From Clytia hemisphaerica (lineage: Eukaryota), in the NCBI RefSeq assembly GCF_902728285.1, contig NW_027103826.1, forward strand, positions 180,759 through 244,758: 64,000 nt of DNA, read 5' to 3'. How positions within the stretch are numbered: the first letter of the stretch is position 1; each line of letters starts with the position of its first letter. The notes beneath the pieces were generated by a model. The model saw nothing but the letters and a program-made list of their open reading frames with translations. It did no database searches and was not told where the DNA came from. Of this stretch, positions 11,658 to 53,913 are shown piece after piece. Position numbers and translations under genes: made by a program.

Positions 11658-11661
11658 CAAA

Positions 11662-12414: not shown

Positions 12415-12476
12415 ACGATCAAAACAGTCAATAACAAGTTGTGTTTTTTCTTATGACATTTTGAGCTTATATATAT

Positions 12477-14645
12477 TTGTTATTTGTTTTTTGTGTGTGT
12501 TTCACATTTGAAATCATATATCGAGTTATGTTTCATTTACTTTGTACACGTTCAGAGAGATATTGGGAAATCGAAGAAAACGAACAAGCCTCGGTAGCAG
12601 GAAAGATTCAGAAATTTGCTAAATTTTGGGAATCGGAGCTAGATGCACCACCTTTTATTCTAGACATCGTCAAAACCGGCTACAGTCTTCCATTCATTAC
12701 TACGCCTCCCCCAGCCTACAGCAGAAACAACAAGTCCAGTAAGAGAGAGCACATATTCACTGAAAAATCGATTAAAGAGCTTTTGAAAAATAATTGTATA
12801 CAGGAAGTCGATTACATTCCCCACTGTGTCAACCCCCTTTCAGTTGCAGAAAGAAATAATAAATTGAGGCTTGTTCTTGATCTTCGAAACGTTAATAAGT
12901 ACATTCAAGTGAATAAATTTAAATACGAAAATCTTAAGACGGCTTCCGATTTGATTGATTCTGATGATTTCATGATCACTTTCGACTTGAAGAGCGGTTA
13001 TCACCACGTCCCAATTAACGCTAACTTTTATACGTATCTGGGTTTCTCATGGGAGTTCGACGGCGTAACCAAATACTTCGTTTTTGTAGTGTTACCTTTC
13101 GGTTTATGTTCAGCATGTTGGGTCTTTACAAAGTTAATGCGTCAATTAGTGAAAAAATGGAGAGGTCAAGGGATTAAGTCGATTATGTATCTTGATGACG
13201 GAATCGCAGCTGGGTATCCGAAGTCGCTAATGATTGTACAACGTAATAGCATGGTATCCGATCTTATGTCCTCCGGTCTAACAATTAACATCAAGAAGTC
13301 TTCTTTGGAGCCTGAAATAGAAAAAGAATGGCTAGGCTTTACGATTAACACCAACGACATGCGTATGTACATCCCTAATAAAAAATTAAAAGCTGTTTTG
13401 AGTTTTTTAGATACTATTTTGAGATTCGATTACGTCACCACAAGAAGTATCGCAAAGTTTGCAGGGCGTATAATCGCCATGTCTATCGCCATAGGCCCTT
13501 TGACCAGACTTTTTACGAGACAAATGTATAAATTCATTGACGATAAGAATTCGTTAGGTTGTACATGGGATAGCTATCGCCCATTAACAACAGAAGTAAA
13601 ATCGGAACTTACCTTTTGGAAATCTAATCTATCAGCGGTGAACGGCTTAGAATTTAAAACGTCTCCTGAAATTACTAAGATCTGCTATAGTGATGCAAGC
13701 CAATACGCATATGGAGGTTTTATAGTCGAAAAATTGAACAACGTCATAGCTCAAGGTAATTTCTCTAACTTCGAAGCCAACACTAGTTCCACGTATAGAG
13801 AGCTTTCTGCTGTAAAAAACGTTTTATCATCTCTTGCTCACAAGCTAAAAAATAACGCAGTTCAATGGAATTCTGATAACGAAAATGTAACAAGAATAAT
13901 TAATGCCGGCAGTACAAAAGAATATCTACAAAAGTTAGCAATTGACATTTATAATATTAACGTTCGTAACAACATCAGGCTTTATCCTCAATGGATCCCT
14001 AGAGAGAAAAATCAAATCGCTGACAGTATCAAAAATCGACACAGATAATTGCTATTGATAACAGACATTTAATTACATTCAAAACACTTATCGTTTTTAC
14101 AATAAAATTCGCTGACAATAAAAACACTAAACAGAGAGATTCAACTCAAAGAACGACACAGATATATTGGATCTATTGATAACGACGACATTAATTACAA
14201 ATTACATTCAAAACACTTATGGCATGGTTTTTCAATTTAATAGATAGATTAGACATTCGCTGACAATAAAAACACAAGACAAAAGATTCGAGAGTCAATC
14301 AAAGAACTTTTGAACTTTGAAATACAGAGGAAGGTTAAGGAGGTTAATGCATTCGTAAGTCACTGGGGAAACGAGATAAATTGGCTATGTCCACCAACAT
14401 ATCTCATTGGAAAAGCTATAAAACACTTAAAGTTGTGTAGAGCAAAAGGAGTGTTGTTTGTACCGGTATGGAAGTCTTCTTACTTTTGGCCATTACTTAC
14501 AAGAGACGGTATAAACTTTGAAAGTTTTATCAAACATTTTCTAGTTTTGGATCCATTTTATTTCAACTATTCTAGAACAAAATCTGTTTTTGAAGGCTTT
14601 GCAAAATTTTATGCTTTGGCATTACTTATTGATTTTTCGGAATAA
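12477..14645 (+). pseudogene. DIRS-like pol (reverse transcriptase plus RNase H). The ORF is broken after RNase H motif NQIAD by a ~150-bp internal tandem duplication (14035-14300), and the RH C-terminal tail resumes in ORF 14310..14645.
   Basis: RT motifs FDLKSGYHHVPI, LPFGL and YLDDGIAAG; RNase H motif IPREKNQIADSI; C-terminal LFVPVWKSSYFWPLL resembles the DIRS pol tail (PxWxxxxWF). Two near-duplicate blocks 'tcgctgaca(a/g)taaaaa..cgacacagata..ttgataac..ttaattaca..ttcaaaacacttat' lie between the two ORF parts. Confidence 0.8.
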
Positions 14646-15023
14646 AAGACGAAATAATTACTTAACAAAATTAATTTCTTGTTTTATGTTCTACATGATG
14701 CCGAGAAACGAACGAAGCTACGGATATTGAACGGTATGAGGAACGAACGGACCACGAAAATTGAGGACTACGAGGACCGGTGAACCAGAGATTGGTTTAG
14801 GCACATGCCAGCCCACAGGTGTCATAGGTGCACAGTGAGGCATTACAATCATTGATTATATACGTATTGGCCAGTTCGCTGGTGTCAAAGGTACACAGTG
14901 AGGCAAGATGAACGATATCAACGGTTAGAGATTGAATCAGGTATGAGAGATTAAAAATTTTATTCCCCCTTTTTCTTTCGTTACTTGTAGAATCCCTTAT
15001 GTTCGGAATTTGGCGAAAATTAG

Positions 15024-15824
15024 ATGACATCAAAGACAACAAGCTTAGATCAATCGCATCCTCCCTTCCAACCTTGGTTAAATCAGCATACGCCGATTCC
15101 ACTTTGCAAAAAATACAAGCCTGCCTGGAATAAATGGATCTCCTGGGCCGCACAGTTTGACGAAATATGCCCCTGCCCGGCCACGCCTTTCTACGTTGCG
15201 GTTTACTTGAACGACATAGTGTCCAATAACGGAAAAATTGGTACTCTAGACGTAGCTATTTCAGCAATAAGATGGGGTCATTTGAATTCGGGTTTAGAAT
15301 CGCCTACAGATCATCCATTTGTAAAGTTAGCCTTAGAAGGAGGAAAAAGAATAATAGCAAGAGGGGGAGGAAAAGTATCCAGACAAAAAGAGCCTTTGGA
15401 TTCAGAGCTTCTGAAACAAATTGTTGACGAATATGGCCAATCTAAGAACCTGATGGATCTTCGTTTCGTTCTCATCTGCGTACTTGGATTTTCGGGTTTC
15501 ATGAGAATTAGCGAAATTTTGGCCCTAAAGATAAAGGATATTACTTTTGAGGATGAAGGAATTAAGATTTTTATCGAGACTTCAAAAACGGATCAACTTA
15601 GGGAAGGTCACATCCTACACATTTCCAAAACTGATACAAAGTGTTGTCCAATCTACTGGCTGAGGCATTATCTCTCAATTTCTAAGTTGGAAAAAGAAGA
15701 AGAATCTTTCCTTATATGTCGTCTTGCCAAAACGAAAATAGGCCACAACGCAATCGGAAAGTATAGCGTCTCTTATTTCCACGGTATGGACCTGACGGAA
15801 GTTTATGTCGACGGACAGTTCTGA
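15024..15824 (+). CDS. Tyrosine recombinase (phage-integrase-like) of the DIRS-like element.
   Basis: 266-aa ORF. An N-terminal core-binding-like region (…AISAIRWGHLNSG) is followed by a catalytic region with R…(LRFVLICVLGFSGFMRISE)…H-x-x-R-like residues (GHILHISKTDTK, WLRHYL). Its position after pol matches DIRS architecture. Confidence 0.75.
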   Translation: MTSKTTSLDQSHPPFQPWLNQHTPIPLCKKYKPAWNKWISWAAQFDEICPCPATPFYVAVYLNDIVSNNGKIGTLDVAISAIRWGHLNSGLESPTDHPFVKLALEGGKRIIARGGGKVSRQKEPLDSELLKQIVDEYGQSKNLMDLRFVLICVLGFSGFMRISEILALKIKDITFEDEGIKIFIETSKTDQLREGHILHISKTDTKCCPIYWLRHYLSISKLEKEEESFLICRLAKTKIGHNAIGKYSVSYFHGMDLTEVYVDGQF

Positions 15825-16139
15825 TTTTGAGGCAAAATCTTTTTTTATTAAATTGCTTTTCCTGTTAGATATTTTTAAGATTGAAAATTCCATCTATTCA
15901 TGAAGCAGGTTTATCATACATACTAGTAATCAGTGGAACAGTGTGTGTTTTTCAGCTAAACGATATCGGTAGCTTTGGGAATGGTACAAAAAGCGTAGGA
16001 TAAACCCTTATTTCTATGGTTTTTATTCCCATCTCGACTTATGAATAAGAGTAATTTTATCGAAAAAATTTTTCAAATTAAAACGAACTAATAATCAAAA
16101 TCATTGCCAAAAATTTTTTGAATGTTGAAAAAGTCAAAA

Positions 16140-16265
16140 TGTTTTCGAAAGATTTATGATTTATTTTTGATTTATTTAAGATTTATTTTTAATTTATGAT
16201 TTATTTCTGATTTATTTTTTATTTATGATTTATTTTTGATTTATTTTTGATTTATAAATGTGTGT
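16140..16265. repeat. Minisatellite (gatttatttttgatttatga)n. Related copies with similar flanks lie at 32870-33020 and 33170-33400.
   Basis: Direct reading shows tandem 10-20-bp units. The unit downstream of each array is similar at the three loci (…tgatttataaatgtgtgtacgatattaattttagtgacatgcc.ctcg / …ttgcgtacgaaatttattttagtgatttgcccctcgg). Confidence 0.7.
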
Positions 16266-17025
16266 ACGATATTAATTTTAGTGACATGCCTCTCGAATTT
16301 TAGCTGGGTTTTATGTCATGTTTCACTATAAAGTCATAAAACCTGATCTGGACAATCTATGACCCTAAAACTTTGCACGAGTACTCTTAATAAGATTTTA
16401 TTTAAACGTCAGAAAGTTTCAAGTCGTTTGAGAAATTTTTCAACGAGATACACGCTTTTTATTTTATAAAAATAAACTTTATAAGAATGTCCATGATGAA
16501 AATAGCCAAAAAATTAAGAATATGCTACGAATATCACAATCATGGAATTTTGCTACTTAAGCTAATAATTTCGATTATAAATTGTCAATTACCCCAAACT
16601 GCTCACTCCTTTCACAGAAATGTCATTTTAGGCTTGAGACGTATGTACTAAATGTTAAATCTAGTCTGAATCAGGATCCTAACCTAAGAATGTTGTAAGA
16701 ATATTTTAGGATGATTTTCCCAAAAAAGTTAAGAATATCCATGATGAAATGGATTTACACCATTCTTATAAAAAAAAGCGTGTATACACAAAAGAACTCC
16801 AGCGTGGTAGATTCTAACCCCCCCTGGGGCTAATAGGGTTAAAACCATAATGCTTTGAATAAGCGGAATAAGACATTAAAAAGATGCATCAAGAGTCAAA
16901 GGTCAAGGGTCTTTTAATGATAATCTGATTAAAATTCGATTTAAAAATATTAATACCAGTGAGACAAATATAGATTTTTTGAAAGAAAAAGTATTCTAAA
17001 ACTTGCCTTTATATTCCTTTAGTTT

Positions 17026-17176
17026 AGCGGGATTTCTGATGTTTTGAAAAATAGTCAGAAATCTAGTATCTTATCGGTTCCGGACGAATGTTCCGGCATG
17101 CGAATTATTGATCATGCGCATAAAAGGGGAGAAGTTATCACTCGTGTCATCTCGCATCAAACGTAAGGTCGCGTTC
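17026..17176 (+). repeat. DIRS-like element terminal direct repeat A2.
   Basis: Second copy of the 151-bp repeat. Confidence 0.85.
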
Positions 17177-25900: not shown

Positions 25901-28900
25901 GTTATCCAAATATGAGACTTAAGGATACATTTTACATCTAGCAACCGTAGCATGAAGGTAGAACCCCCGTCTACGGTTCAAGAGATTGTGGGCTGATATC
26001 AGTAGCGTAGTGGATCGATGACTAAAATTCGGACAAACTGGGGAGGCAATTTTATAAGATTTTGATTTTGGCGCCCCTTATGAAAATTAAATATCTTTTA
26101 AAGAATTACGCGAGCTAAGCGAACACAAAAATTTGGGGGTATTTTCTCTTATTTTGGCCATATATAAGTTTAAAAAGAGCGTACGGCCGCCGAAATTAGT
26201 AATTAGAGGCATTTTTTTACGCCCTTTTTATTTCAGCCCCCCCCCCCGCTGGGGGAGGGGGCCACCACGCTACTGGTTCATATCCTAGCTAGGTAGAAGA
26301 CCTCAAGAGATGGATCAAAAGTAAGTGAAGAAATTCAGGAAAAGGATTGACGCCCTCCCCTTCCAGTTGACAGCTAAAAAAAAGAGGGGAACCTTCGGGT
26401 CTCCCTCGACTGCAGTCACAAACTTTTTATGTTACATTTCATACTTACATATGTTAAAGATTCTCAGTTCATTTCGACAAAATTGTATTGTTAGGATTCT
26501 CTCACCGATATCATCATAACACACAGACTTGTGTCCTCTATAAAGAGGTGATTTAATGTCAATGTCATCATTATCTTCAATTTGGTTACAAAGCTCCACA
26601 GATGACTTGGTTACTGACCATTCTCTTATGATCTATATGAAAAATGAATTCGAAGATTTCTATATATCTATGGACCAAGTTTTTTCCACCATCTTTGAAA
26701 TGGTACCCTAATAAGCGCTACTCGATGCGGGTCAATTTGTAATTCAATTTAAAAAAAATTTCAACGACATTGAGGAATGCTCCCATTAGGGTGCCACTTT
26801 CAAGAATCTCCTATCAAAGATTAGTGATCTTAAGGATCTAGGACTTTTGAAGAGTACGGCAGGATTGAACAAAAAGAAAGCCCTTTGGGATTGATATCTC
26901 GATCGCAGCTTGATTCTATTCTTTTCATTATCAATTTTCTCGTGAGAATAGTTAATTTTAATAGGTAATTAATGGACGTTTTCAAATCTGAAGACAACTT
27001 GAAAGTTCTGTTTTGACATCGTCTTCAGGACAAAGACAGTAAAAGAAGAGAACAATAGTTTTAAATGATATGAATCCCTTAAGAATTATATCGTTATTTT
27101 TTACAAAAACTTTCCTGGATTTCAAATTTGCTCATGTGATAATAAATCTAGATAAAATCGGATAACATTTGACATTTGATTTTAAGATTTACTTCACGTC
27201 CTTATTCAAGTTGCAGTCCTAGATGCTTCAGGTCACTATTTGCTGGTTGGCAAGGGTGAAGAAGCTCTGTAAGTTTTTATGATTCGACTAAAACACAATG
27301 AGGCTCATCAATACAAAAATGGATATGGGAGAAAATGTCTGAAGCTTCCAAAAACAGCGACGTCTTTATATAACTTCAGAATCTAAAAAATGTGAGAGAA
27401 ACTTCGGCATCTTAACTCTGGCATGGTCCAACTTCTCAGGCAAGAATAGGAGCTGGCTTGACTTGGATCTATTGTGACGATTATTGGACAAATTATTCAT
27501 GAATTACATACATAGTCGTCTGATCCAGAGATGATTTTGTTTTCTGTTGGATGAAATGAAAGACAATGTATGACGTCACAATCACATGTAGCCGAACAAA
27601 GTTGATTCCCTGTAAAAAAATTGGAAAAAAATGAAATGTTGTGCAACATATTGGATATTATCAAGACCTCTTAAAATCGACAAATCCTTATCGGTAGAAG
27701 ATTCGTCAGTGAAAAAATTCGTCGGCAAAAACTATTTGTCGGCAAATCATGTCGTCGTCAAGAAAATATTTATTTATTTTCTATTGACGTAACCTCATAA
27801 ACCTAGTATCCCACTGGGAAAATTTTATCATATAAAAAACACACCTTGGAGATCCCATCCAATTATATCACCACCCAAATGAGCTGAGAAAATCATATTT
27901 AAACGTTCATTATAGCAACAATCAAACCCAGGTTTTTCAGTACACCATTTTTTGACGATTTTCAATGAATTGTTATCAAGAACTGTAATCCAGGTAGCTA
28001 TGTATCTTTCATTTGAATCCACATGTGCATGGATGTTAATTTCATTCCAACAAGCTAGAAGGTTATCACCAGTGCAAGTAAGCCATGAAGTACACAAATC
28101 CTTAGATAAATCAATAAAAATCATTTAACGTATAGATATCCTATCAATTCAGTATTGGAAATAGCAAAACATACTGTAGATGCACAGAGTTTACAGCCGG
28201 CGATGGGCCAGTAGTTAGAGAAAACTAGCCAGAAACTTAAATTTTGTACATAGGAGATATAAAGAAAAAACACTACGGTCAGATCATTTATGTACCCTTA
28301 AATGATCTGACCGTAGTGTTTTTTCTTTATATGCCACACTTATTCCTTAATTACTCATGATGTAATTACTTAAATTCATTTTTTCAAAAGCAGTTTGTTC
28401 TTAAACATGTCAAAGAAAACATAAGGTTTTATCTTCAAATTCTGAAATTGATTTTTCATTATGACCAGAGCCCTTAAGCGCATACGAAATGATTATAATG
28501 ATGATTAAAATGGCGCCTAAAATGAGCTTGGAGACATACCTTTTCAAAAATTTGAACAACATCTTCCAAAGTACCTTTGGAAATGTTGTATCTTGATATT
28601 GTTCCGACAACACCAAGTATCAAAGTTTTGCCATCCGATGAAATGGAATCAGCAGATCCCATGTCCTTGAAATCGTGAATTACTTCTCCACTATTCATAT
28701 CAAATACAGCTGTGAATTTACCAGTAATAGCAACAATATCTCTCTTCGGGTTCACTGAAACACAAGAGACTCCTCCCCTACGGTATTTAACAAGCATCGA
28801 GTCCCCTTCCATAGGGATGTTGGTCCAATATAAAGGGTAAGCCTCCCCTTTCACTAAGGGTTCCATCCCTAGGGAAAGTGTATCTTTAGTAACGAATGAA

Positions 28901-31900
28901 TTGGGTAATTGTGTTACAGCCATGTTGAGGCTAAAATTCGGCAATTCCTGAATGTAGGGTGTGTAGAGCTGAACAAAAGAAGCCCATTGTTTGAGAGCCT
29001 CTAAGTCTTCTGTATCTTTGAGAGTAGCCAAAGCAACTGAGTAATCCTCGCTTAAGCTTTGCTGTTGCTTGGCAACAATGCGGTTTTTAACGAAGTAAAG
29101 ATTTCTTAGACTTATTTTCAAGCTTTCCAAAGGTGTATCTTGGTTTTGGTGAGCTTTGAGCTGATGGTAGACCAGCTGCTCTAAGATGTTATCAAAATAC
29201 GCTGGAGGTTCCTCTTGAGGTGTTTCACAACATTGCTTGATGATAATGTCTTGGAAAAAATCTCTCATACACGCGTGTGTTTCCTGCTCGAAGGATTCCG
29301 TCATAAATTTTTGGCGCACAGCATATTTGAGCTGGTCGTGGAAGAATCGAAGATAGCCACCTCCCCCTAAAATATAGCATCTTTTTTTAGAATACAGCAA
29401 AAGCTCCATAGCTGAAATCCTGCTAACACACAACATTTTTGCAACGTTCATCTAACGTTATATGGACATTGTGAACATTAGATAAATGTTGAAAAAAGTG
29501 CTATGCCAGCTGGGAAAGCCTATCAAGCAGAGTCTTCGATCACACAAAAAAACAAAATTCTAATCTGTCTATCACGTCATTGAACTAAACACATTTCTCA
29601 TCAATCATGTATCATACCTCTTGAGATCACCATGATATCACGCCAAAAAATGCCCTATTACGCCACACCACGTAAACCATTGGAGAGGGGCTAATATCTC
29701 TAGCCACTAATCCTTTCTTGATTCAAAACAAACATTTATCAACATAGTCTCTACAAACTACAAACTAAGTTTTCATCGCTCTGACAACCTTTAGTTTTCC
29801 GAGCGTGTTCCAATTATTGAACCTTTCTACTGGCAATTGTTTATCCTATTATTAACAATTATCTTTAGGTATCTTCCTAATTGCCAGTACTTCCATTACT
29901 TACCGGCTGCTAAGAAATGAGAAATCGAATCATAAATCCTTGGGAAATTTGCATCGTACAAAAATTGTCCATCGCCTTTTTCTCTTTGTTCTTTGTAATG
30001 CAGAAGGTCATTTATTTGGTTCTCTAGCAAGCCATCTTTTGAAACACAGATTAATCCTGCTACGTCATGCACGAATAATTTGCCGTAAGTTATTGACCAA
30101 TCGTCTAAGAGGAAGCTAAACAGATCTGTAATGCTGTTTGGTAGATTCTCAATATACTGTGTCACCTTTTCGAAAATTCCAAACTTCCTCAAAGCCTCGC
30201 AAGCAGCAATTAAGTACAACGGACTTTGACTCTTAGACAATATTATCTCCATTTGGTTGCCAACTTTCGAGTCTTCATTTTCGGTTAGCTTCTTGTTGAA
30301 TCTTGCCAATGTTTCTCTGACCATTTCTTTCAAGTCTTCATGACTCATGTTTTCAACAGGAAGACATTCTGCGTCAGGAGAAACATCGAGTGCATTTTGG
30401 AAGGTCCCATTTTCTTGATTCAATGTCGAGATCATGAATTTGAGATTCTTGGGAGCATCTTTTAACGGTAGCCACCACATATCCCAAGCGCCTATATAAA
30501 AGGGATTTATGGGAATTTTAGATTTTTCAGGGCTTTCTAGGTGATAATTCAATGCATTTTTGGGATATTGTAACATTACTGGACCCTCAAAAAATAGTGT
30601 TTAATGAATCCCCGATTTGAGTCTCTCAAAATTCTTCTAAAACGTTCACACTTAAATATTTCTAGCTTTGAACTTAAGTAGCTAAGACTTTTTGCAACTG
30701 CAGTTGAGGGCGATCCGAGGGCTCCCTTTTTGTTAATTGTCTATCCAAAGGAAGACAATTAAGACAAATCTTGTCCCTGGCTTTCTCTATTTACCCTAGA
30801 CCCCTCTCTTTTACTAGTTACTAAACCTCAAGCAGAGAGACATTAACAAACATTCTGGGGTTTTCGGTCCATACCAAGGTTACCTCGGCAGAGATATACC
30901 CCATAAAACATAAAACATACCTAGCCCGCTGTGGAATTGATTGACAGCATCAATAATAATAACGAATAATTTATCTGGATATTGATTTGCACTTTCGATC
31001 AGAAATTCGTGATGTTCTTGTTTCAATTCTGAAGCATTTCCAGTAAATTCTTTGGACAATTTGGTTTCACCCCTATCTCGTCTGTATTTTCTCAAATTCA
31101 TTTGAAGTCTTCGCATCATTCCTGAAAGAAAAATTCTTGACCTTAAAAATATTACCTCGCTCGAATATTGATCCATAGATGTTCATGTAAAAATAAACAA
31201 GCCTTGGCTCAACTTTTTAGTCTAAAGCAAGAAGGATATCACTAAATACTCCTTTCTAGGATAGTATCGTTTTATTCTACTCACAAATTAGGGAAATAAT
31301 TCGAAACGGGGCATAATAATTATTATTTTGAAAAAGTTGTGATATTAGTTTGAAAAACACTATACCAAGTAAAGGTGAGCCTAAGGCTAGACTACTAAAC
31401 CACGTCGTTGTATTTCGCTGCAACTTAATCTTGCAATGAGCTCTATGTCTATATGTTCACTGAATACAATGTCAATTTCATTGTCAATGTCTTTCCAAAC
31501 CACTCGCCCGCGGAAATTTCTATTTTTATAAGAACTCTTTATAGCACTATTCCCGCATTCCTGTGTCCAAGGAAAGACAGACGCTTGCTAATCTAACTTA
31601 AGGCGAATGTTTTGCTAGTCTTTGTTCCCGTGCGAACAGGATGAGCTGAAAACGAGCACCTTACCTTCTAAAAGACTCGAACTAGGGCAAGAATCAACAG
31701 CGTGGATAAACAAAAAGTCGTTTGTCTTTTCTACTCGACTCATACAATCGACTGCAATTTTTGCCAACAAACCAGATTTTCCACACCCCGGTTCACCATG
31801 TAAAATCAGTGTGTTTGGGTAACCGCTAGTAAGACAGTGTTGATATGCTTTGTTAACAAGACCTTTACGACCAACAAATGTAGCAGCCTTTAATTTTACG

Positions 31901-32527
31901 GCGTTTCTATGTTGTATTGATTCTAGTGCGTAACTATAGAAAAAATGATAAAAATAAAAATTATTTGAATTGGAATGAATTGTGTTTTTAAATTCTCTTG
32001 TAAGTATCTCGATATATTTTGCAGGGGAACCAAAAAAGTAACTTTTTATATTATCCAATTAAATGTTGGAAAGATATTCACGAGTGGAATATTACCAAAT
32101 TGAAAACAACAAAAAAGTGCAAAATGAAGATGAAAAATGAAGAAGAAAAAAATAAACTTCGTGTAGAGTGTGCTGTGGTTTAAATTTAGAAGATTATAAC
32201 TATTTATCAAGGAATTTAGCATTCGAAAAATTATCAAAATTAGAAATTATTAGAAAAAAAACTTTTAGACTGTAAAAAATGAGGAGTGTATATTTAATTC
32301 GATCCAAAGAAAACACGTACTTGTCAACTTGTGTCGTATCAATCGAAGAATAATTCGATAAAATTGACTCCATTAAATCTTCCTCGACCTGTTTTTCAAA
32401 ATCTTCCAATTTCTTCACGTAACCAACTCCAAAACTTCTGGCATTTTCTCTTTTTAAGGTTATTTTTGCGTCACAATATTGAGCGCTGTACTCTGACCAT
32501 TTTATCTCTGGATGACCCTGGATAAAC
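19766..32527 (-). CDS. NWD1-like: NACHT- and WD40-repeat-domain gene (NWD1-like STAND NTPase), multi-exon. Order on the minus strand is N-terminal helical region, NACHT with Walker A and B, helical domain, then at least 7 WD40-repeat exons. Further 5' exons probably lie upstream of 32527.
   Basis: Walker A LILHGEPGCGKSGLLAKIA (compare NWD1 LVLFGPPGIGKTALMCKLA). Walker B DKLFVIIIDAVNQF (compare NWD1 SLVLLLDAMDDL). The N-terminal exon aligns to NWD1 ...KELGEQFVVRANHQVL. Downstream exons carry WD40 signatures (GH...D, LRIFD, WD). Confidence 0.75.
20065..20770. mobile_element. MITE-like element with terminal inverted repeats tctactagagggg / ccctctagtaga and internal degenerate tandem motif aaaa(t)tttcgcacccccctaagga.
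   Basis: The terminal inverted repeats and the internal repeats are visible by direct reading. Confidence 0.5.
21008..21200 (-). CDS. NWD1-like: NWD-like WD40 exon. Only the 3' part of ORF 21008..21391 is coding; the upstream part overlaps a MITE.
   Basis: …MAFDLTNGTIKYYVQRAYKIIGGFFSNNCLLYNGNDSNHNFFKYDPESEKDICEYKGK. Confidence 0.35.
21395..21600. mobile_element. MITE with G-rich terminal inverted repeats (ggggggcgtacgg … ccgtacgccccc) and internal cggtatttcgg(a/t) motifs. The same family recurs at 22050-22200 and 62385-62790.
   Basis: Inverted termini and a shared internal motif are seen at three loci. Confidence 0.55.
22385..22730. mobile_element. MITE with terminal inverted repeats catccctttctcacagacc / ggtctgtgagaaggagatc. 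A second family member lies at 41455-41745.
   Basis: The two copies are about 85% identical over about 300 bp (…ctcactg.a.aatattatgctattttt…cccactggctg.aaaaa…). Confidence 0.6.
22742..23023 (-). CDS. NWD1-like: NWD-like WD40 exon (ORF-bounded, approximate).
   Basis: Open frame …MYACAINKTGDLGCVSGYFNGKQSYF… on the same strand, colinear with the flanking WD40 exons. Confidence 0.4.
   Translation of the reverse strand: MDVSDLKIFKEKMLLQGFSKPMYACAINKTGDLGCVSGYFNGKQSYFIEFVYLLPDIFYSILCSMGKCRCAAFSSREVEKIHFCYHSNLTSEF
23216..23581 (-). CDS. NWD1-like: NWD-like WD40 exon (ORF-bounded, approximate).
   Basis: …CLSFMDLDDAGSNLIVTGNQEYLGVAKV… and …RLYDTATLELKL… match the WD40 β-propeller blade pattern. Confidence 0.45.
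   Translation of the reverse strand: MKYKSLKNKFSLFRLYDTATLELKLSREAAKSTELRGVLHPDSTHVIIFSNTTKIACFKVAELELVSEYEYFTPEDNTCLSFMDLDDAGSNLIVTGNQEYLGVAKVPYTITISLFHRIRVF
24995..25510. mobile_element. MITE/foldback element with terminal inverted repeats gcgctgttatgcgcagttttgtaatt … aattacaaaactgcgcataacaagcgc and an inverted internal duplication (…gagttgaaagagttataactcg(g/a)cattac…).
   Basis: Perfect ~26-bp terminal inverted repeats are seen in the sequence. Confidence 0.6.
27828..28124 (-). CDS. NWD1-like: NWD-like WD40 exon (ORF-bounded, approximate).
   Basis: Open frame …FSAHLGGDIIGWDLQ… carries the WD dipeptide. Confidence 0.45.
   Translation of the reverse strand: MIFIDLSKDLCTSWLTCTGDNLLACWNEINIHAHVDSNERYIATWITVLDNNSLKIVKKWCTEKPGFDCCYNERLNMIFSAHLGGDIIGWDLQGVFFI
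28530..29451 (-). CDS. NWD1-like: NWD-like large exon carrying the HETHD-like region and the first WD40 repeats (…GGVSCVSVNPKRDIVAITGKFTAVFDMNSGEVIHDFKDMGSADSISSDGKTLILGVVGTISRYNISKGTLEDVVQIFEK). The donor GTATGT lies at 28524-28529. The 5' end is approximate.
   Basis: Long open frame with WD-repeat-like periodicity, ending exactly at a consensus donor. Confidence 0.55.
29896..30576 (-). CDS. NWD1-like: NWD-like helical/winged-helix region exon. The ORF-bounded range is given; true splice ends are slightly inside it.
   Basis: 226-aa open frame with no repeats, in colinear position between the NACHT exons and the WD40 exons. Confidence 0.5.
   Translation of the reverse strand: MLQYPKNALNYHLESPEKSKIPINPFYIGAWDMWWLPLKDAPKNLKFMISTLNQENGTFQNALDVSPDAECLPVENMSHEDLKEMVRETLARFNKKLTENEDSKVGNQMEIILSKSQSPLYLIAACEALRKFGIFEKVTQYIENLPNSITDLFSFLLDDWSITYGKLFVHDVAGLICVSKDGLLENQINDLLHYKEQREKGDGQFLYDANFPRIYDSISHFLAAGK
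30921..31121 (-). CDS. NWD1-like: NWD-like NACHT exon with Walker B (…HEFLIESANQYPDKLFVIIIDAVNQFHSG).
   Basis: Acceptor is tttttctttcag, donor is GTATGT. A hydrophobic stretch is followed by an acidic D in hhhhDa context. Confidence 0.7.
31665..31933 (-). CDS. NWD1-like: NWD-like NACHT exon with the Walker A P-loop (…FVGRKGLVNKAYQHCLTSGYPNTLILHGEPGCGKSGLLAKIAVDCMSRVEK…).
   Basis: Acceptor is ttttttctatag, donor is GTAAGG. Carries the GxxGxGKS motif. Confidence 0.75.
32321..32527 (-). CDS. NWD1-like: NWD-like exon encoding FIQGHPEIKWSEYSAQYCDAKITLKRENARSFGVGYVKKLEDFEKQVEEDLMESILSNYSSIDTTQVD.
   Basis: Strong acceptor gattctttttttag, donor GTACGT. The phase-2 end joins the phase-1 start of the next exon, giving ...VDN|YALE. 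Confidence 0.65.
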
Positions 32528-33922
32528 CTAAAAAAAGAATCAACAAATTTGAAGATTTGGATTTCAGAGCTAACAATATATGTTATGTATATGAAGGGGA
32601 GAAAGTGCCTATTTTGCAACATTAAAAAAGAGCGACAAATTTCACCATCCCAACCCCGACCGAAAGTTAAGAGCGAGGACTTAAAACAATCTGGAAATTA
32701 TGTAAAAATACCCACAAAATGGTAAAAAAAAACGAACTTTCTAAGAACAATTTTAGGCTTCAAACTTAAAAAATTAAGAACATCAGAAGGTTTAAAAGGT
32801 TTTGGTATTCTTATAAAAAAGGTTTACACCGAGGGCAGGGGGGGGGGCAAATCACTCGAAAAATGGTGTGCGAGATTTATGATTTACTTTTGATTTATGA
32901 TTTATTTTTGATTTATGATTTATTTTAGATTTACTTTTGATTTATGAATTATTTTTTATTTCTGATTTATTTCTGATTTATTTTTGATTTATGATTTATT
33001 TATGATTTATTTTTGAATTATTTTAGATTTATCTCTAATTTATGAATAGGAGTAATTTTATGGATGCATTTTTTCAAATTACAACGAACTGATAATCAAA
33101 ATAAGTGTCAAAATTTTTTAAAAAGTTGAAAAGTCAATTTTTTTCGAAAGATTTTTTATTTATTTTTTATTTATTTCTGATTTATTTTTGATTTATGATT
33201 TATTTATGATTTATTTTTGAATTATTTTAGATTTATCTCTAATTTATGAATAGGAGTAATTTTATGGAAGCATTTTTTCAAATTACAACGAACTGATAAT
33301 CAAAATAAGTGCCAAAAAATTTAAAAAGTTGAAAAGTCAATTTTTTTCGAAAGGTTTTTTATTTATTTTTTATTTATTTTTTATTTTTGATTTATTTTTG
33401 ATTCATAAAATTGCGTACGAAATTTATTTTAGTGATTTGCCCCTCGGTTTACGCAGGCTACCTCACAATACTTACTCGTTCAAAGCATCTCTATCCTTTT
33501 TATAAGCAGAAGCATTTTTATTCACGTTGTATTGGAATTTCAATTGCAGATCTTCCATCTCTTTTTCCACATACTCAAATTCAAAAATCCATCGAAATTC
33601 TTCTGGGAATTTTACACCTTAAAAATGAAGGAAATATGTTCCGAGATTTTACCGATCTTTTTCCTCGGAAAAATATTACGGAAAAATCTCGAAACGGGTA
33701 AAATATCGAGTTTATCGTCAAGCTGTAAACGTTTCGAATTTTAGAAGGAAGAAATGATTGTTGAAGAATTGATGCTTCAAAGTCAAGGAAGTATTTTTGT
33801 TGAGAATTGGGAGAGAACTTTTATAAAGATCGCTCGTCATATGGTTTAATACAAGACACAAGAAGCCGGAGCGGCCAGCTGACGTGGCAATAACCGAATG
33901 TCGTTCGTAACGGGTTCCTTAA

Positions 33923-34622
33923 GGGCTCTGACCATAGTGAATTTTTCAAAATTGCCGTGTTTAAAATGTGTTTTCTGACTGATGTAACCAACAAAACTAT
34001 GGCATGTTATACATTTTCTGTTAGACAAACTATTCCTGAATCTGAAAACTCAAAAATTGCATTGAAAAAATTTGATGAAGAAGAAAATGAAGACTTTTGC
34101 GAGGAAGAGTATTTCAACTTTGAAGAGCTTAGTTTCGGCGAAGAAAAAACATTTTGAAAAAATTTTCGCAGTAGATGGTGTATCTTTTACCGAACAAAAT
34201 ACCGAAAATTTTTGTAAATGCTTTTTTGTCTCGAAATCTTCAAAATAGTGATTCATCAATTTTTCATATGGATTTTTCTTAAAAATACATTCATAACTTT
34301 TGACACATCTTTTTAGAAAAATTTTCCGCAAAATTTAAAATAGTTCAATTCTTTGCGGAAAGTTTGAAAAAAGTTCGAAACAAAAAGGTTAATTACCTAT
34401 TAAAACTTAGCACTTTTTATAAAAGAAGGTGATGCAACATATTATTAACGTCTTTTTAAAGCTCATAACGTCATTTTTGCAATTAGGTTCTTAATTACTC
34501 TTAAGGGGTTTGATTAAAAAGCAATTTATAAAGGCGATTCTTTGTTAAAAGTGTTAAAGAATTTAAAACATAACTTTTATGTTCAGATACTAAAATCGAT
34601 TTTCTGACTATGGTCAGAGCCC
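33923..34622 (+). mobile_element. About 700-bp MITE, copy 1, with terminal inverted repeats (aa)gggctctgaccatag … ctatggtcagagccc(tt) flanked by TTAA. It carries a conserved 66-aa acidic ORF at 33957..34157.
   Basis: About 96% identical to copy 2 at 42155-42849 over its entire length. TTAA lies at both junctions (33919-22, 34623-26). Confidence 0.75.
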
Positions 34623-34731
34623 TTAAGTGACGCAAAGAAATTTCCTTCCCATCCTCCACTCTGAGCTTCTATTTTCGTACTGCTAAGTTTTGAAAGTTTT
34701 TGATGCATTTCCCAAAATTTCGAAACTTTTG

Positions 34732-39208: not shown

Positions 39209-41907
39209 AAAGGCATTTCGAGGCACTTTATTAATTTTTGAGTTCTTTCAGCCCAGCCATCTTGTGCTTGTTTAAATTTCTTAATGTTGATCTTTCCATA
39301 GAGGTATAAAGAAAGACAGGAGATGAATTTGTCGGTAATTGGTCGTTAAAGTCTTTTGATTTCTTTTATGTAATAAATCAAAAGAAATTCTAGGCTCGCC
39401 CGAAGAAATACGACTTTTTAGTAGAACTCAAGTTTGCTCTGATCTGAACATTCTTACTATCAGTATCAGCATCGAAGATTTCTAGCCTTCTAATATACGA
39501 AAATAAAATAAAGTTTAGCTCCACGAAATAAGTTTGCGTTCAATTTTGTCATCCATTAAATATTGTTTTGAAAAGATATTTTCTCCAGCCAGAAAATAAA
39601 AAGTTATGTATAAGCACACACAATTTCAGACCCAATTTGTAGACAAAAAGTCGCTGGAGGTTGTTGGAGGAAAGTATTAAGCAATAGAGTTCACCTTGAA
39701 GAAAATGTTGATCGAAAAATTTTGTCCTTTGATGAAGGATTGCAAAGTTTACAGGCCTTTTTTTAATCCAAATATTTTCTTACACCAATGTCAGAAACAA
39801 TAAATCTCGTCTCATCTTATTTCCAACACTTAAGTTAGCCAATAAGATTTCACCTATCAACAAAAGAGCTCATTAAAAATGCACGATATATGAGATTATG
39901 AGCATGCATACCTCGTAATTTTTTTAATCGTAGGGCGAGCATGGTTACAATGATCTTTCCTGCAAAATGATTTTATAATGCAAGTGTATTATCAACGGCA
40001 TATCATTAATGTCTAAAACGCACTGAGAATTTTAAGTAGTAACGACAAACCAATAAAATTTACCATTAAAGATGCTACATTACTGATTTCTTGAACAACA
40101 AATAGTCATCAAATACGACAGAGATAGAACAACAGAAATTCAGATGTTTTCATCCCAGCCGCGGCTTTCTTATACGTACTATGTTTTTACCAATATGCGT
40201 AAATTCCCAACAGGGATGTGGGCAGGAATGCTTTGTAGTTTCACAAGAGCGGTGAAGGAAAACACTATAAATCAGATTTCGCAAAGGCTCAATAAGGAGA
40301 AAAATGAATTTTCTTTTAGCAAGAGTCATGCTCTACTTACTGAGGCTGCTCAAAACCATTTTCTGGTAAAAACTTATCCTGCACCCAACCATATCGATCT
40401 GTTCGAAGTCCCAAAAACCATGGCATGTACACGATATCGTCCCGACATTTATCAATCTGATTCAAACAAGTTTTTTGGATTTCTTCGCAATTTTTGCTCT
40501 CGTCAGCTAAAACTCCCCATCGAAGATCAACTGGTATAACTCGAATGAATTTGGAAGTTAATTTTCGATTGATGCTTGGAATGACACGTTGTACCTTTGG
40601 AAAACAATTGTAAAACTTGTGATTTGCGACTAAGAACTATCGTGAAAAGCACAGGTCGAAATCATATGTCGACGCTGTGACGACCAATCCAGATTCTATT
40701 CAGCGCGCAATCAACGAAGAGAAAAGTAACCATGACGACCATCCAAGATCTTGGATGAAGTTCAAAGTTGATATTTTTATTCCAGTTGTTGAAAACACAA
40801 CTCAAAAATGTAATCGATGCTTTTTAAAAAGAGTCAATGATAACTTAAAGTCTGTCTATTAATTCGATTCAATTAAAGTGACATTTCCATAATTAAAAGT
40901 TTAGTAATTACTGTTATACATTTGGGGATCATGTAAAAGATTTCTTTTGAAAGAAACTCATTTCACTTACACTTGGAGGTTTCTGGGGAATTCGTAAATA
41001 GTTAATTGCATACTGATACAGTCTGCTAGACATTAATATGGTAATATTTGCTCTTCATCTTTGATTTTTTCTACAGTGATTAGATTGACACATGCGCGAT
41101 AAAATTTCTATTATTGGTCCTCAGAGAATGAAATATTCCCAACCTCTGATACTCAGGGTAACTAAGAACGCATAGCCCAAAGTGGGTGTACCGATTCTAT
41201 TGTGAGTATATCATATACCTACCTCATTAATTTGATGAAGTGGTCCTAGTGTTTAAAAAAACTAACAAATGATTCGTACTAGAAGAGGTGGGGTTTTTTT
41301 TCGTTTGGAATAATAATGTTAATAGCTCCTGAAATCATGGAGGTGTAAACTTTTATTTAGCTCGTTCAAAATTGAATCAATTTTCGTTATCAATAAATGT
41401 GCTAACATGAGGAGGATCTTGAGAGCCAAATTTCATTCAAATATACCAACTAGATTGCATCCCCTTCTCACAAACCCACTGCACTGGGAACCCTTCTTAC
41501 TGAAAAAATTAAAAATTATCCTCCAATTTTTTGCTCCACTGAAAATAATCAAATAAACCAATCCTCACTGTAAAATATTATGCTATTTTTTCCATCGTCA
41601 CTGAATTTACTGACTTAAAAACAAAAGAAATTAAATCCCCGGTCATAAAAATTATGGGAATATCGATCCCCATCGAGTTTCAATCCGTTATTTTTACTCC
41701 CACTGGCTGTAAAAAACCTACAGGGTCTATGAGAAGAGGGTGTTAGATTAAAAGTTAAATGGTTGTCTAGGGTTGCACATGTAGGAAAAAACCTGAACCC
41801 GAACCTGAACCTGGTTCTGAACCACTGAAAAAAGGCTAGTATGAGAAGGGTTAAGATATGATCAATATTTTCATATTTGTTCAAATTAGTTTGTTTACAT
41901 ACCAAGA

Positions 41908-42046
41908 TATCTCTTTCAGAATGTGTATCAATGAAAGTAGACGAAATGAAAAGTCGGATTTCAATCCAAGTTCCAACTTGACGTTCTTTTGCTTTCTCTT
42001 TTATTGCTTCGTGGTGAATCAAATTTTGAGATAACCATTCGTCCAA
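41908..42046 (-). CDS. Candidate 5' coding exon with a DUF4062/TIR-like motif (MDEWLSQNLIHHEAIKEKAKERQVGTWIEIRLFISSTFIDTHSERDIL). Either the first coding exon of the NWD-like gene, across a >9 kb intron, or a separate gene.
   Basis: It starts with ATG and ends at a consensus donor (CTTG|GTATGT). hFISSTFxDxxxERD is the N-terminal signature of DUF4062, the domain that precedes NACHT in NWD1/NWD2-type proteins. Downstream sequence in the same frame reads into a MITE. Confidence 0.45.
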
Positions 42047-42154
42047 TGAAATTTCTTCTACCTAGGGAACGTGTAAGGTTAAATTAACCAGGTTTTCTTT
42101 TGCACTTGATGGCCATTAAAGCATGATCAGAGTGGGTTTGCGAGCTACTTAAAA

Positions 42155-42849
42155 GGGCTCTGACCACAGTGAATTTTTCATAATTGCCGTGTTTAAAATG
42201 TGTTTTCTGACTGATGTAACCAACAAAACTATGGCATGTTATACATTTTCTGTTAGACAAACTATTCCTGAATCTGAAAATTCAAAAATTGCATTGAAAA
42301 AATTTGACGAAGAAGAAAATGAAGACTTTTGCGAGGAAGAGTATTTCAACTTGGAAGAGCTTAGTTTCGGCGAAGAAAAAACATTTTGAAAACATTTTCG
42401 CAGTAGATGGTGTATCTTTTGCCGAACAAAATACCGAAAATTTTTGTAAATGCTTCTTTGTCTCGAAATCTTCAAAATAGTGGTTTTCATCAATTTTTCA
42501 TCTGGATTTTGCTTAAAAAAACATTCATAACTTTTGACACATCGTTTTAGAAAAATGTTCCGCAAAATTTAAAATAGTTCAATTCTTTGCGGACAGTGTA
42601 AAGAAATTTTGAAACAAAAAAGTTAATTACCCATTAAAACTAAGCACTTTTTGTAAAAGAGGGTGATGTAACATATTATTAACATCTTTTTAAAGTTCAT
42701 AACATCCTTTTTGCAATTAAATTCTTAATTACTCTTTCGATTAAAAAGCAATTTATAAAGGCAATTCTTTGTTAAAAGTGTTAAGGAACCTGAAATATAA
42801 CTGTTATGTTCAAATACCAAAATCAATTTTTGGACTATGGTCAGAGCCC
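42155..42849 (+). mobile_element. About 700-bp MITE, copy 2. Same family as 33923-34622. Carries the same 66-aa ORF at 42189..42389.
   Basis: Same terminal inverted repeats, TTAA at both ends, and an ORF differing by a single residue (F54L). Confidence 0.75.
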
Positions 42850-45959: not shown

Positions 45960-46800
45960 GAAGCATTTGAGTAAAAAAGAAAACTCTCACACCACTATGC
46001 TTATAAATAAACGTTACCAAAAACAACATCAAAACAATACAAAATATGCTTATAAAATACATCCACAATATATAGTTACCAACAACCACACCATTATGCT
46101 TATAAATAAGCGTTACGAAAAACAACATCAAAAAAATCCACAATATATAGTTACCAACAACCACACCATTATGCTTATAAATAAAAGTTACCAACAACCA
46201 CACCATTATGCTTATAAATAAACGTCACCAAAAACAACATCAAAACAATACAAAATATACCAACAAAAACAATACAAAATATCGATAACATATCAACAAC
46301 ACACAATTATGCCTATAAAAGTTACCAACAACCACACCACTATGCTTATAAATAAAAGTTACCAACAACCACACCATTATGCTTATAAATAAACGTCACC
46401 AAAAACAACATCAAAACAATACAAAATATACCAACAAAACCAATACAAAATATCGATAACATATCAACAACACACCATTATGCCTATAAAAGTTACCAAC
46501 AACAGCACCACTATGCTTATAAATAAACGTTACCAAAAACAACGTAAAAACAATACAAAATATGCTTATAAAATACACTCACAATATACAGTTACCAACA
46601 ACCACACCATTATGCTTATAAATAAACGTTACCAAAAACAACATCAAAACAATACAAAATATACTTATAAAACACACCCACAATATATAGGAAAACAACC
46701 CCAAAAACGACGTAAGCCGATAACCAACAACACATCATTATGCCTATAAAAGTTACCAAAAAACCACACTACTATGCCTATAAATAAAAGTTACCAACAA
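45960..46800. repeat. AC-rich minisatellite with units of about 60-120 bp (…accacaccattatgcttataaataaacgttaccaaaaacaacatcaaaacaatacaaaatat…).
   Basis: Direct tandem repetition. The overlapping ORFs on both strands are translation artefacts. Confidence 0.8.
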
Positions 46801-47224
46801 CGAATATACCTATCAATACTTAAATACTTAAATTATAAGATACAACATCAGAACAAAAGCTTATAAAACAAACAACACCAATTTACAACACAAATACAAA
46901 AATATCAAAATAAATACACCTAAGATACTCCTCCTACAAACAAAATACAAAGATATGCTTACATAAAAATACACAACATATGCTTTCTAAAAAAATGTAA
47001 TCTTCATAAACTAGAATTTATAAGAAACCACTTTCAAAAACGCAATAGAATAAACGAGTCCTAACGCCCATATAAATAAATAACAAGACGACTCGGAAGT
47101 CGAAAATTTCGCATAATATTCGAAATGAGAAAAATTGACCATAAAATAACGAGGTCAAGGGGGGGGGGTATCTGCTGTACAACGACGTGTTAAACGTGAT
47201 GCATGAAGAATATTGTACACGAGG

Positions 47225-51324: not shown

Positions 51325-53913
51325 TTATATCCAGTCTCGCCTCGCGTGAGACAATGAATGTCTTGGTAGATCTTCGTTATTAAGTTCGTTTAATAGGGGT
51401 TCAGTTCTTACATCTACGCACACTTCTCTTAGCAATTTGGACGTAATGTCTCTAATTTCATTGTGTCTCAAAGACACGAATCCTCCCTTCTTGCACGAGA
51501 GCGCGTGTGCTAGATCGAACGATGATCCGCACGCGCAAGTTGATGGTAGTCGGTCGAGAGGCCAGTTGTATCGAATTCTGATGGCATCCCAAAACTCTTG
51601 CTTGGTCAGCTCGAAACCTTGTTCATTCAAAGGGATGGATGTCAGCCAATTTGAAACACCTTTTTGATTGAGCGTCTCCATCGTTCGTTTGGTGTTGATG
51701 TCGGCTGTCTCCAAGAAAGCTCGTAGCTTTTCCTGGTGACGTTGATGCCGTTCGTTGTGAAGACGAGACTTGGATTTCGCTTCGGGTGCACCATCATTTG
51801 TTTGAAGGATTTGATTCTGCAGTGCCACGGTTGCACTCATCGAGTCTCTGTGATCGTGGCTCGATTCTTCGGCGTAGATTTTCAGTCCCATTCCGCCGAG
51901 ACGTGGAGGTAAGGAAAGCATTATTCTTTCCTGGTCGTTGATGATGCGTCCACCAGTTAGTGATGGAATCAGTCGGTGCCGCACAGCTTCGTCGACTCTT
52001 TTCAGCTCGTCATTGATCGTTGGGATGGTGCGTAGGAAGTACGTCAGCTTATGTTGGTAGCTGCTGACGTAGACTGAGTAGGCTGCTTGTGGATAAGTTG
52101 CTGCGATTTCAGCAAGAAGATTAATCTCCTGGGTCCAATCGTCGATCTTTTGGTTGATGTACTGACTTTTGTTTTCATCCGTACCAATCACCGCCCCGAG
52201 GTGCCGTTCGCCATCGGATGTTATTTTGATATCGGTACCAGCAAACTTTTCCTGTGCTTGTTCGAGTTGGTCGGGTTTAACAATCAGCCAAGATTTTGTT
52301 GGTTGTGGATAATAACCGTAGGATGGACCGATCTCGAGGAGATGATCCCACCATTTCTTCAATGCGTCCAAGGACCCAGCTGCTGTGATATCGTCGGCGA
52401 AGGCGACCATTCGGTTGTGGTTGTTGCCTATACCAATGAGGAGGATGTTAAGCATCGGTCTAACACCCAGAGCGTAGATAGCCATACCGAGTGGATCTCC
52501 TTGAGTGGTTCCTTCTTGGGATTTGATTTCTAGACCTCCAACGACGAAAAGTCTAGCTGGGCTGGAGTAGCAGTTCGTAACATATGTTGCGATTTCGGGA
52601 CAGATATACTTGATATTGTGGATCAGGGCTTCTCGATTGATGTTGTTGAAGGCGTTGGCTGCGTCGACAAGGATGACAGCGTCTGTTCTTTCGTTGGTAT
52701 ACATCCGTCTCATGGCGTGGATTGCACCCTCGCTCCCAGAACTTCGTCCGCACATTTGCGCGTCAGATGAACCACGTACAACGTCTTCAGAGAATGCGGC
52801 CATCACAACTTTCCCCATGATTCGTCGGAGGACTTCTCCAACACCTATCGGTCTAAGTCCAGGGTTCTTGTTGAGAGGTACAAGACGTGAAGCAAAAAGT
52901 GGTGCTAACGTTGAATCCTTCACATCGATGGAGCATATATTTCTGATGAGCGCTGCAACTGATTTTCGGAGGTCTGTACCCGTGTCTCCGTAGTCTCTTG
53001 ATACGAGGATTCGTCTCCATCCGTCCGCATCCAAGCCCGAGGGTCCGGAACCACCACGAGTGATCTTTGCAGCTTCGTACACCATCTTGTCGTCAATGAC
53101 GTCAAATATTACATTTTCGACGGTTTGAAGTGGACCTTGCAATTTGACGTCTTCTTCAGCTTTACGTCCTTCTGGATGTTTGACTTTTAGTAGATCTTTC
53201 GTTTGATCATTCAGTGGTAGGATTCCCCCTTCCATATTGTTCGACAGAAGCTTGATAGCTGAGTTCAAGTTTCCTTTTGATACGTGCTCGCGAAAATTTC
53301 GAGAAATGACGTTGATGTTTTTCTTTCTATCAACTTTTGGTAGTCTCTTTTGAAGGGTGTCTGCTTCTCGAAACAACTGGTCAAATTCTCCTTGCTGCCA
53401 GAGTTTGAGCCTTCGATTTAGTGCATCGACATGATGCTTACTCTTGGAGTTCTTGGCCGGTTTTTGCAATAGAAGCGCTGGCATGATATGTACTGCGTAC
53501 ATCGCACATTCTTTAATCGGGCTGTCGGCTAACCATTCGTTGATCAATCGGGTAGTTTCTTTGATGTAGTCTTTCCCGGTCGAACCTTTCGGCAGCATAA
53601 AGATGTTCTTCCTCCAGTACACTATCTTTTCATAGCATTGTTTCAGTTCGTGAGTTGCTTGATCGCCGTTGAGTTGGCCCCACATGAAATGATGTTGTAC
53701 CATGGGTTCTTGAGGTGGAGGATCCGGTGGTCTGGGTGGTGGTGGAACTGGAAGTGGTTGAACGGGTCCATTGCAAAATGGAAGATGTTGTAAGACGCCG
53801 CGTTGTGAACGAAATCTTTGCTGTCCACACCTTTCGCACGCCACTAAATTGTTCACGTTTGTTCGATTGATTCGGTTTTCAGCATTTTCGGTCGGATCAG
53901 CTTCGTTTGGCAT
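51325..53913 (-). CDS. Reverse transcriptase ORF of the RLE-type LINE (zinc finger, RT, CCHC).
   Basis: RT motifs PLNKNPGLRPIGVGEVLRRIMGK, ILVDAANAFNNINRE, AFADDITAAGS and GLKIYAEESSHDHRDS-like region. The domain order matches R2/NeSL/HERO-type elements. Confidence 0.75.
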   Translation of the reverse strand: MPNEADPTENAENRINRTNVNNLVACERCGQQRFRSQRGVLQHLPFCNGPVQPLPVPPPPRPPDPPPQEPMVQHHFMWGQLNGDQATHELKQCYEKIVYWRKNIFMLPKGSTGKDYIKETTRLINEWLADSPIKECAMYAVHIMPALLLQKPAKNSKSKHHVDALNRRLKLWQQGEFDQLFREADTLQKRLPKVDRKKNINVISRNFREHVSKGNLNSAIKLLSNNMEGGILPLNDQTKDLLKVKHPEGRKAEEDVKLQGPLQTVENVIFDVIDDKMVYEAAKITRGGSGPSGLDADGWRRILVSRDYGDTGTDLRKSVAALIRNICSIDVKDSTLAPLFASRLVPLNKNPGLRPIGVGEVLRRIMGKVVMAAFSEDVVRGSSDAQMCGRSSGSEGAIHAMRRMYTNERTDAVILVDAANAFNNINREALIHNIKYICPEIATYVTNCYSSPARLFVVGGLEIKSQEGTTQGDPLGMAIYALGVRPMLNILLIGIGNNHNRMVAFADDITAAGSLDALKKWWDHLLEIGPSYGYYPQPTKSWLIVKPDQLEQAQEKFAGTDIKITSDGERHLGAVIGTDENKSQYINQKIDDWTQEINLLAEIAATYPQAAYSVYVSSYQHKLTYFLRTIPTINDELKRVDEAVRHRLIPSLTGGRIINDQERIMLSLPPRLGGMGLKIYAEESSHDHRDSMSATVALQNQILQTNDGAPEAKSKSRLHNERHQRHQEKLRAFLETADINTKRTMETLNQKGVSNWLTSIPLNEQGFELTKQEFWDAIRIRYNWPLDRLPSTCACGSSFDLAHALSCKKGGFVSLRHNEIRDITSKLLREVCVDVRTEPLLNELNNEDLPRHSLSHARRDWI

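Follow-up and report, generated by a model that had tools for sequence, protein, structure and literature searches.

The window, i.e., the whole stretch of 64,000 nucleotides of Clytia hemisphaerica DNA that was analysed, is AT-rich, with about 34% GC, and has a eukaryotic character. Three members of one MITE family, two of them complete and one internally deleted, are located in it as follows:

33923–34622, plus strand: copy 1 (W1) of the MITE, complete, 700 bp, with perfect terminal inverted repeats (TIRs) of 16 nt, flanked by TTAA at 33919–33922 and 34623–34626
33923–33938, plus strand: 5′ TIR of copy 1, GGGCTCTGACCATAGT
34607–34622, minus strand: 3′ TIR of copy 1
42155–42849, plus strand: copy 2 (W2), complete, 695 bp, 92.4% identical to copy 1, TIR matching at 15 of 16 positions, right junction TTAA, left junction TTAAAA
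28301–28473, plus strand: third family member, about 173 bp long, which has lost internal sequence and is flanked by TTAA at 28297–28300 and 28474–28477

Both complete copies lie where an earlier reading, made from the sequence only, had placed them. Their identity, given there as about 96%, was measured at 92.4% over 709 alignment columns (45 mismatches and 9 gap columns), or 93.5% when the gaps are ignored. As for the perfect TIRs of about 15 bp ascribed to both copies, the description holds for copy 1, in which the repeat is 16 nt long and reaches 21 nt if the flanking C-TTAA/TTAA-G is included; in copy 2, one of the 16 positions is mismatched. Similarly, the claim of TTAA at both junctions is correct for copy 1 and for the right side of copy 2, but the left junction of copy 2 reads TTAAAA/GGGC. 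The homology between the two copies ends precisely at the element boundaries. Since the similarity stops exactly there, copies 1 and 2 are independent insertions, and a segmental duplication as the source of both is ruled out by their unrelated flanks. An element of 695–700 bp (roughly below 800 bp), bounded by TIRs, flanked by TTAA and with homology ending at its ends, has the properties of a MITE. The limits of homology, the junctions and the Pfam scan also support the earlier view that this is a MITE family inserting at TTAA and too short to encode a transposase.

The third member had been overlooked when the family was described as two copies. Its 5′ end is degenerate and its 3′ 130 bp are recognisable, and the region of the open reading frame (ORF) is missing entirely. 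Allowing up to three mismatches, five occurrences of the TIR were counted in the window, compared with 0.21 expected from shuffles, and no TIRs beyond those of the three family members were found there. A nearly perfect palindrome of about 80 bp is found at 28253–28332; its arms, each about 38 nt long, resemble the 5′ end of the MITE (CTGACCGTAGTGTTTTTTC compared with CTGACCATAGTGAATTTTTC), and it seems to be an inverted duplication of this end in the deleted copy that follows. On the other side, the minus-strand host ORF at 28474–29451 (325 aa, with a weak, sub-threshold APAF1_C-like match) has its TAA stop inside the TTAA of the deleted copy (28474–28477), and it may be the insertion that sets the end of this host exon or cuts it short.

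The surroundings of the copies contain both host-like genes and other mobile elements. Two NACHT/DUF4062-type (NWD/NLR-like) gene fragments are located on the minus strand at 28474–32622 and 40340–42061, the former having copy 1 about 1.3 kb upstream of it and the latter copy 2 about 100 bp upstream; further pieces with 86–95% similarity, at 22.5–24.6 kb and 38.8–41.7 kb, suggest a paralogous gene cluster. A class-C-GPCR-like exon, whose best protein match is 62% identical, is also present. Among the mobile elements, a DIRS-like retroelement at 11507–17176 possesses a gag-like zinc knuckle, RT/RNase H (domains at 11.6–15.8 kb) and a tyrosine recombinase (15024–15824), and lies between two 151-bp repeats with 99.3% identity (11507–11657 and 17026–17176). 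An intact 862-aa reverse-transcriptase ORF with a LINE-type RT occupies 51325–53913 on the minus strand, in a local GC-rich island (41–47% GC compared with about 34%), and is probably a young non-LTR retrotransposon. In addition, tandem-repeat arrays were found at 45988–46801, 32873–33406, 8572–9841 and 55358–55791, the first of which coincides with a strong strand asymmetry (GC skew −0.26 and AT skew +0.27 in 46–48 kb). The tRNA-like strings in the MITE flanks are not tRNAs according to ARAGORN, and the Rfam scan of the element gave only a sub-threshold miRNA-like match (21.5 bits against a gathering score of 72 bits), so that a known RNA was dropped as a candidate.

The family beyond the window

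The 5′ third of both complete copies contains an ORF for an acidic peptide, within which two blocks of conserved sequence are found:

33966–34157, plus strand: ATG-initiated acidic ORF of copy 1, 63 codons, judged incidental
42198–42389, plus strand: the same acidic ORF in copy 2
34050–34256, minus strand: antisense ATG-initiated ORF, 68 codons, in overlap with the acidic ORF of copy 1 (its counterpart in copy 2 has 83 codons, 42239–42490)
33998–34022, plus strand: conserved block 1, ATGRCATGTTATACATTTTCTGTTAG, element positions 76–100, mean pairwise identity 0.95 (15 copies) and 0.98 (5 ORF-independent copies)
34073–34122, plus strand: conserved block 2, GATGAAGAAGAAAATGAAGACTTTTNCGARGAAGAGTATTTCAACTTTGAAGAG, element positions 151–200, mean pairwise identity 0.92–0.96

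The ORF had been presented as an intact, ATG-initiated frame of 66 aa, but the first "M" of that version is a GTG codon at 33957, and the first ATG, at 33966, gives 63 aa. The statement that a single substitution separates the two peptides is correct: the ORFs of copies 1 and 2 differ at 3 nucleotides, 2 of them synonymous, and the only amino acid change is F→L. Family-wide, the core of the ORF corresponds to 33999–34157 (52 codons and the TGA), and only these last 52 codons are common to the family.

A search with the acidic peptide returned 105 protein clusters (90% identity level) of 36–109 aa, all of them from ENA metagenome assemblies, and the names of the metagenome records indicate marine plankton studies. 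The family therefore comprises at least 105 ORF clusters. At the DNA level 16 copies were aligned, namely the 2 window copies and 14 metagenome copies, the latter made up of 11 contigs behind the protein clusters and 3 loci that the 5′ TIR retrieved from JGI metagenomes; the DNA copies are 75–93% identical to copy 1. In the alignment of the 16 copies, the 5′ junction is readable in 14 and reads TTAA/GGGCTCTG in 13 of them. The three complete copies for which both flanks are available (W1, L003 and L005) all show TTAA on each side and no longer duplication, and on this ground TTAA is the target-site duplication. Neither the TIR nor conserved block 1 had matches in viral contigs or in bacterial and archaeal genomes, and a full-text literature search with the TIR string gave only unrelated primer-like matches. 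In summary, the family is a multi-copy, non-autonomous, TTAA-targeting MITE family, genuine but ordinary.

One consequence concerns the protein databases. More than 100 database "protein" clusters (P0001–P0105 and P0111–P0192) are translations of the MITE, some of which run through the TIR (..FKGSVHSEF..); in other words, prokaryote-style gene calling on metagenome contigs has filled the databases with well over a hundred clusters of MITE translations. Two of the fetched loci showed further peculiarities. In L013, at about 1010–1480, the MITE copy is broken after element position 328 by a tandem repeat with tRNA-like motifs (GGCCGAGGGGTTAGCG...GGTTCAAA), and this insert is possibly a tRNA-derived SINE. 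In L001, a diverged MITE copy adjoins a frame (1941–4475, minus strand) that is rich in N, S and K and about 845 codons long; this frame is broken only by three in-frame TGA codons and ends with TAA, and could be a pseudogene or come from an organism that reads TGA as sense. Such a reading of TGA, which would lengthen the acidic ORF, was dropped for the window, where no recognisable coding ORF was extended by it. L001 was also discarded as an autonomous partner: only a single TIR is present on this 5.4-kb contig, but none of the ORFs there has a transposase domain.

The divergence within the element is uneven. Between copies 1 and 2, 5 mismatches fall in element positions 1–235 and 40 in positions 236–700 (Fisher P = 5e-4); the acidic frame differs by 2% and the 3′ parts by 9%. 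Across the family, the two ORF-internal blocks match the TIR in conservation, also in the subset ascertained through the TIR, and their synonymous positions are likewise conserved. Because individual insertions decay neutrally, this uneven divergence must have its origin in the source lineages. One possibility is that the 5′ third is constrained in elements that are still mobile, for example as subterminal sequence bound by the transposase; the other is that sequence has been exchanged among copies. In the alignment, L005 is a mosaic between the W1 and W2 variants. We read the 5′ blocks as being under a putative cis-acting constraint, for which there is a precedent in the coral CMITEs, whose internal region is conserved and has been proposed to play a role in transposition (PMC2872659). 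The unevenly conserved 5′ module would be a reasonable candidate for a transposase-binding region. A THAP-type site (TNNGGCA in conserved block 1) was considered and dropped, since the G is not conserved across the subfamilies (ATGRCA).

Coding tests on the acidic frame

The boundaries of the acidic frame vary within the family. The TGA used in the window ends the ORF in only 22 of the 105 clusters; in 43 clusters the frame reads through (TGA→TGG), in 29 it shifts at the A-run just before, and the starts fall at three different positions. Decayed frames also occur: L001 has a premature stop in the ORF, L006 and L011 have 1-bp deletions, and P0080, a near-identical relative in the window's own sub-lineage, carries a frameshift ahead of the acidic tail. 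Decay of the ORF in other copies, which the earlier reading had named as the observation that would speak against it, is therefore seen in a qualitative sense, in a sample mostly retrieved through the ORF. Since most DNA copies were fetched in this way, ORF decay rates are biased toward open frames; in the copies found by the TIR alone (n = 5), the 52-codon core is open in 5 of 5.

It is very improbable, in our judgement, that the micro-ORF is translated and under purifying selection, either as an exapted peptide or as an aid to the mobilisation of the MITE. This possibility draws on three observations. Firstly, the Nei–Gojobori (NG86) pN/pS is 0.43–0.45 in the ORF frame and about 1 (0.8–1.1) in the other two frames, a contrast also seen in the 5 TIR-alone copies, although this method ignores transition bias and the ORF is built of two-fold-degenerate codons. 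Secondly, the sense-frame peptide retrieves 105 clusters and the antisense ORF only 2. Thirdly, there is the open core in all the TIR-alone copies just mentioned. However, when the observed from–to mutation types were preserved in a permutation, the synonymous events (20 compared with 15.9 ± 2.9 expected, P = 0.11) were not significantly in excess, and the shortage of stops (1 compared with 3.1 expected, P = 0.13) was not significant either, both in spite of a sample biased to open frames. The minimum numbers of changes per codon position are even (27/24/27), without an excess at the third position, and indels are as rare after the ORF (2 events in 96 bp) as inside it (3 events in 156 bp). The start and the stop vary, the peptide has neither homologues nor domains, and the deleted TTAA-flanked member at 28301–28473 has no ORF at all. 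Moreover, the conservation of the blocks at synonymous sites indicates a constraint on DNA, not on protein. As for the imbalance of 105 against 2, gene callers report only one ORF where two overlap, and in the family ancestor the sense frame was open.

The size of the ORF is common in such sequence. The window holds 55 ATG-initiated ORFs of at least 63 codons, i.e., 0.86 per kb, and 13% of random 700-mers with the composition of the element contain one. Furthermore, stop-to-stop frames of 60–109 codons, antisense or in +1, are found in most copies.

MITEs commonly originate by internal deletion. The conserved 5′ module with its acidic frame might be a remnant of the 5′ end and first coding exon of a parent autonomous transposon, kept for its cis sequences, and the ORF a relic of the transposase N-terminus. 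The 5′ ~330 bp are the best conserved part of the element, and many copies continue in frame for 83–99 codons (..TFWKNFCGRWCIFYQTKNRFSENFCKSFFVSKS), suggesting that the frame was once longer. Against this stand the protein searches, both word-indexed and exhaustive, which gave no credible longer protein. Among 1.84 billion representative proteins, the HMMER profile had 91 hits (representatives at 50% identity), all but one of which are at most 183 aa long and are explained by read-through into the flanks or by frameshifts; the lone longer hit is a marginal repeat protein of 296 aa (E = 7e-4), so that neither a transposase nor a credible longer homologue of the acidic ORF was present among these proteins. 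This negative result is a weak one, because the host genome seems to be absent from the collection (the best match to a host gene is 62% identical). The Pfam scan of the peptide gave no family above threshold, and neither the window nor the 14 fetched loci contained an element that shares the TIRs and carries a transposase. Taken together, we regard an origin of the frame from a parent transposase as unlikely.

According to a further proposal, the TIR-proximal 5′ module (about 76–330) would be selected in lineages that still transpose, with an acidic micro-protein acting in mobilisation or exapted by the host. If true, it would account for the open frame in the TIR-alone copies, for the pN/pS of about 0.45 and for the divergence of 2% compared with 9%, but we give it very little credence. 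The notion of a conserved micro-ORF, be it an exapted peptide or a transposase N-terminus, is not supported, in view of variable boundaries, decayed copies, a coding signature short of significance, the lack of a longer homologue and an ORF size that is common; nor does the frame have the conserved start and stop, the homologues or the domains of a coding gene. Most likely, the micro-ORF is incidental, a by-product of stop-poor, GAA-rich sequence, and annotation of the "conserved micro-ORF" as a gene should be avoided.

Superfamily and mobilisation of the element

Because of TTAA, the target preference had been described as piggyBac/PIF-like. The termini of the window copies and of the fetched copies with readable ends are 5′-GG...CC-3′ (RR...YY; GGGC...GCCC). 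In PIF/Harbinger elements (Tourist-like MITEs), the target-site duplication is the 3-bp TWA. Such a duplication was not found here: read as 3 bp, the junctions would be TAA on the left and TTA on the right, and a PIF-type duplication misfits because these are not direct repeats and the full TTAA stands at both junctions. The TIRs of piggyBac-type MITEs begin with CCC and end with GGG (PMC2872659, Table 1), a contrast with Kolobok that is also drawn in PMC9587614; the element has the TTAA duplication of piggyBac, but not its 5′-CC(C/Y)...GG-3′ termini. The published signature of Kolobok consists of a TTAA duplication and 5′-RR...YY-3′ termini (PMC9587614; PMC6004289), criteria that Hikosaka and colleagues also apply to the T2-MITEs of Xenopus (PMC6004289), and the element shows both. 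Therefore, piggyBac and PIF are the poorer fit, and the termini and target site, taken alone, point to Kolobok as the probable superfamily rather than piggyBac. That is to say, TTAA by itself does not imply piggyBac, and it is the terminal dinucleotides that discriminate.

The source of the transposase would lie outside the window. Neither the long ORFs of the window nor the 7.5 kb between copies 1 and 2 contain a transposase domain, and a full-length autonomous partner sharing the TIRs, the search for which had been suggested in the earlier reading, was found neither in the window and the 14 fetched loci nor in the protein searches. We consider it likely that the MITE is mobilised in trans by a Kolobok-type transposase and that the acidic frame of 52–66 codons is incidental and not a functional gene. 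A DDE transposase whose gene lies elsewhere in the host genome would mobilise the MITE of about 700 bp in trans by cut-and-paste. It would recognise the 16-nt TIRs, and probably also subterminal sequence in the well-conserved 5′ third, and would integrate the element at TTAA, duplicating that site. Judged by TTAA and 5′-GG...CC-3′, this transposase would belong to the Kolobok superfamily, and the acidic frame would be an incidental open frame in GAA/TTC-rich, stop-poor sequence, inherited from the family ancestor. From these sequence features we infer both the identity of the transposase and the cis-acting role of the conserved 5′ blocks. The result is an added Kolobok-type, TTAA-targeting MITE family, with little import beyond annotation.

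Among the known systems, the solo LTDRs of KolobokP, known from bivalves and other marine invertebrates, deserve attention, since the element might be such a unit of a composite transposon instead of a deletion-derived MITE. The LTDRs of KolobokP fall into lengths of about 450 or about 660 bp, have their own TIRs of 11–18 bp, start with GG and end with CC, and their solo units are abundant in marine invertebrates (PMC9587614). The 16-nt TIR and the GG...CC ends fit this description, the family comes from marine samples, copies 1 and 2 are in direct orientation, and the length of 695–700 bp is close to, though somewhat above, the ~660 bp class. Nevertheless, each window copy has its own flanking TTAA, and the 7.5 kb between them carry host-like exons (with a weak DUF4062 match), without a transposase or His-Me nuclease domain. 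The target is strictly TTAA here, whereas the duplications reported for KolobokP are of 3–5 bp depending on the family; the TIR is unlike those of the published KolobokP consensus sequences, in which it was not found, and no LTDR–INT–LTDR arrangement was seen in any fetched locus. A solo LTDR is thus a scarcely probable identity for this element, and a MITE mobilised in trans is the reading that we prefer.

The coral CMITEs of Acropora, which are associated with piggyBac, are likewise TTAA-flanked MITEs with an internal region conserved better than or like the TIRs (PMC2872659), but they are about 100 bp long with CCC...GGG ends, while the element here has 700 bp, GGG...CCC ends and its conserved part in the 5′ third. 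MITEs derived from piggyBac, such as the MER85-type, share the TTAA duplication and differ in their canonical 5′-CCC...GGG-3′ ends, of which the 5′-GGG...CCC-3′ of the element is the reverse. Finally, compared with the non-autonomous elements of Kolobok, for instance the T2-MITEs of Xenopus, the terminal motif is GGGC instead of AGGRR, and no similarity to their listed TIRs extends beyond a short TCTGAC core; what the element has in common with them is the TTAA duplication, the RR/YY termini, short TIRs, a high copy number and the lack of a transposase of its own (PMC6004289, PMC9587614).
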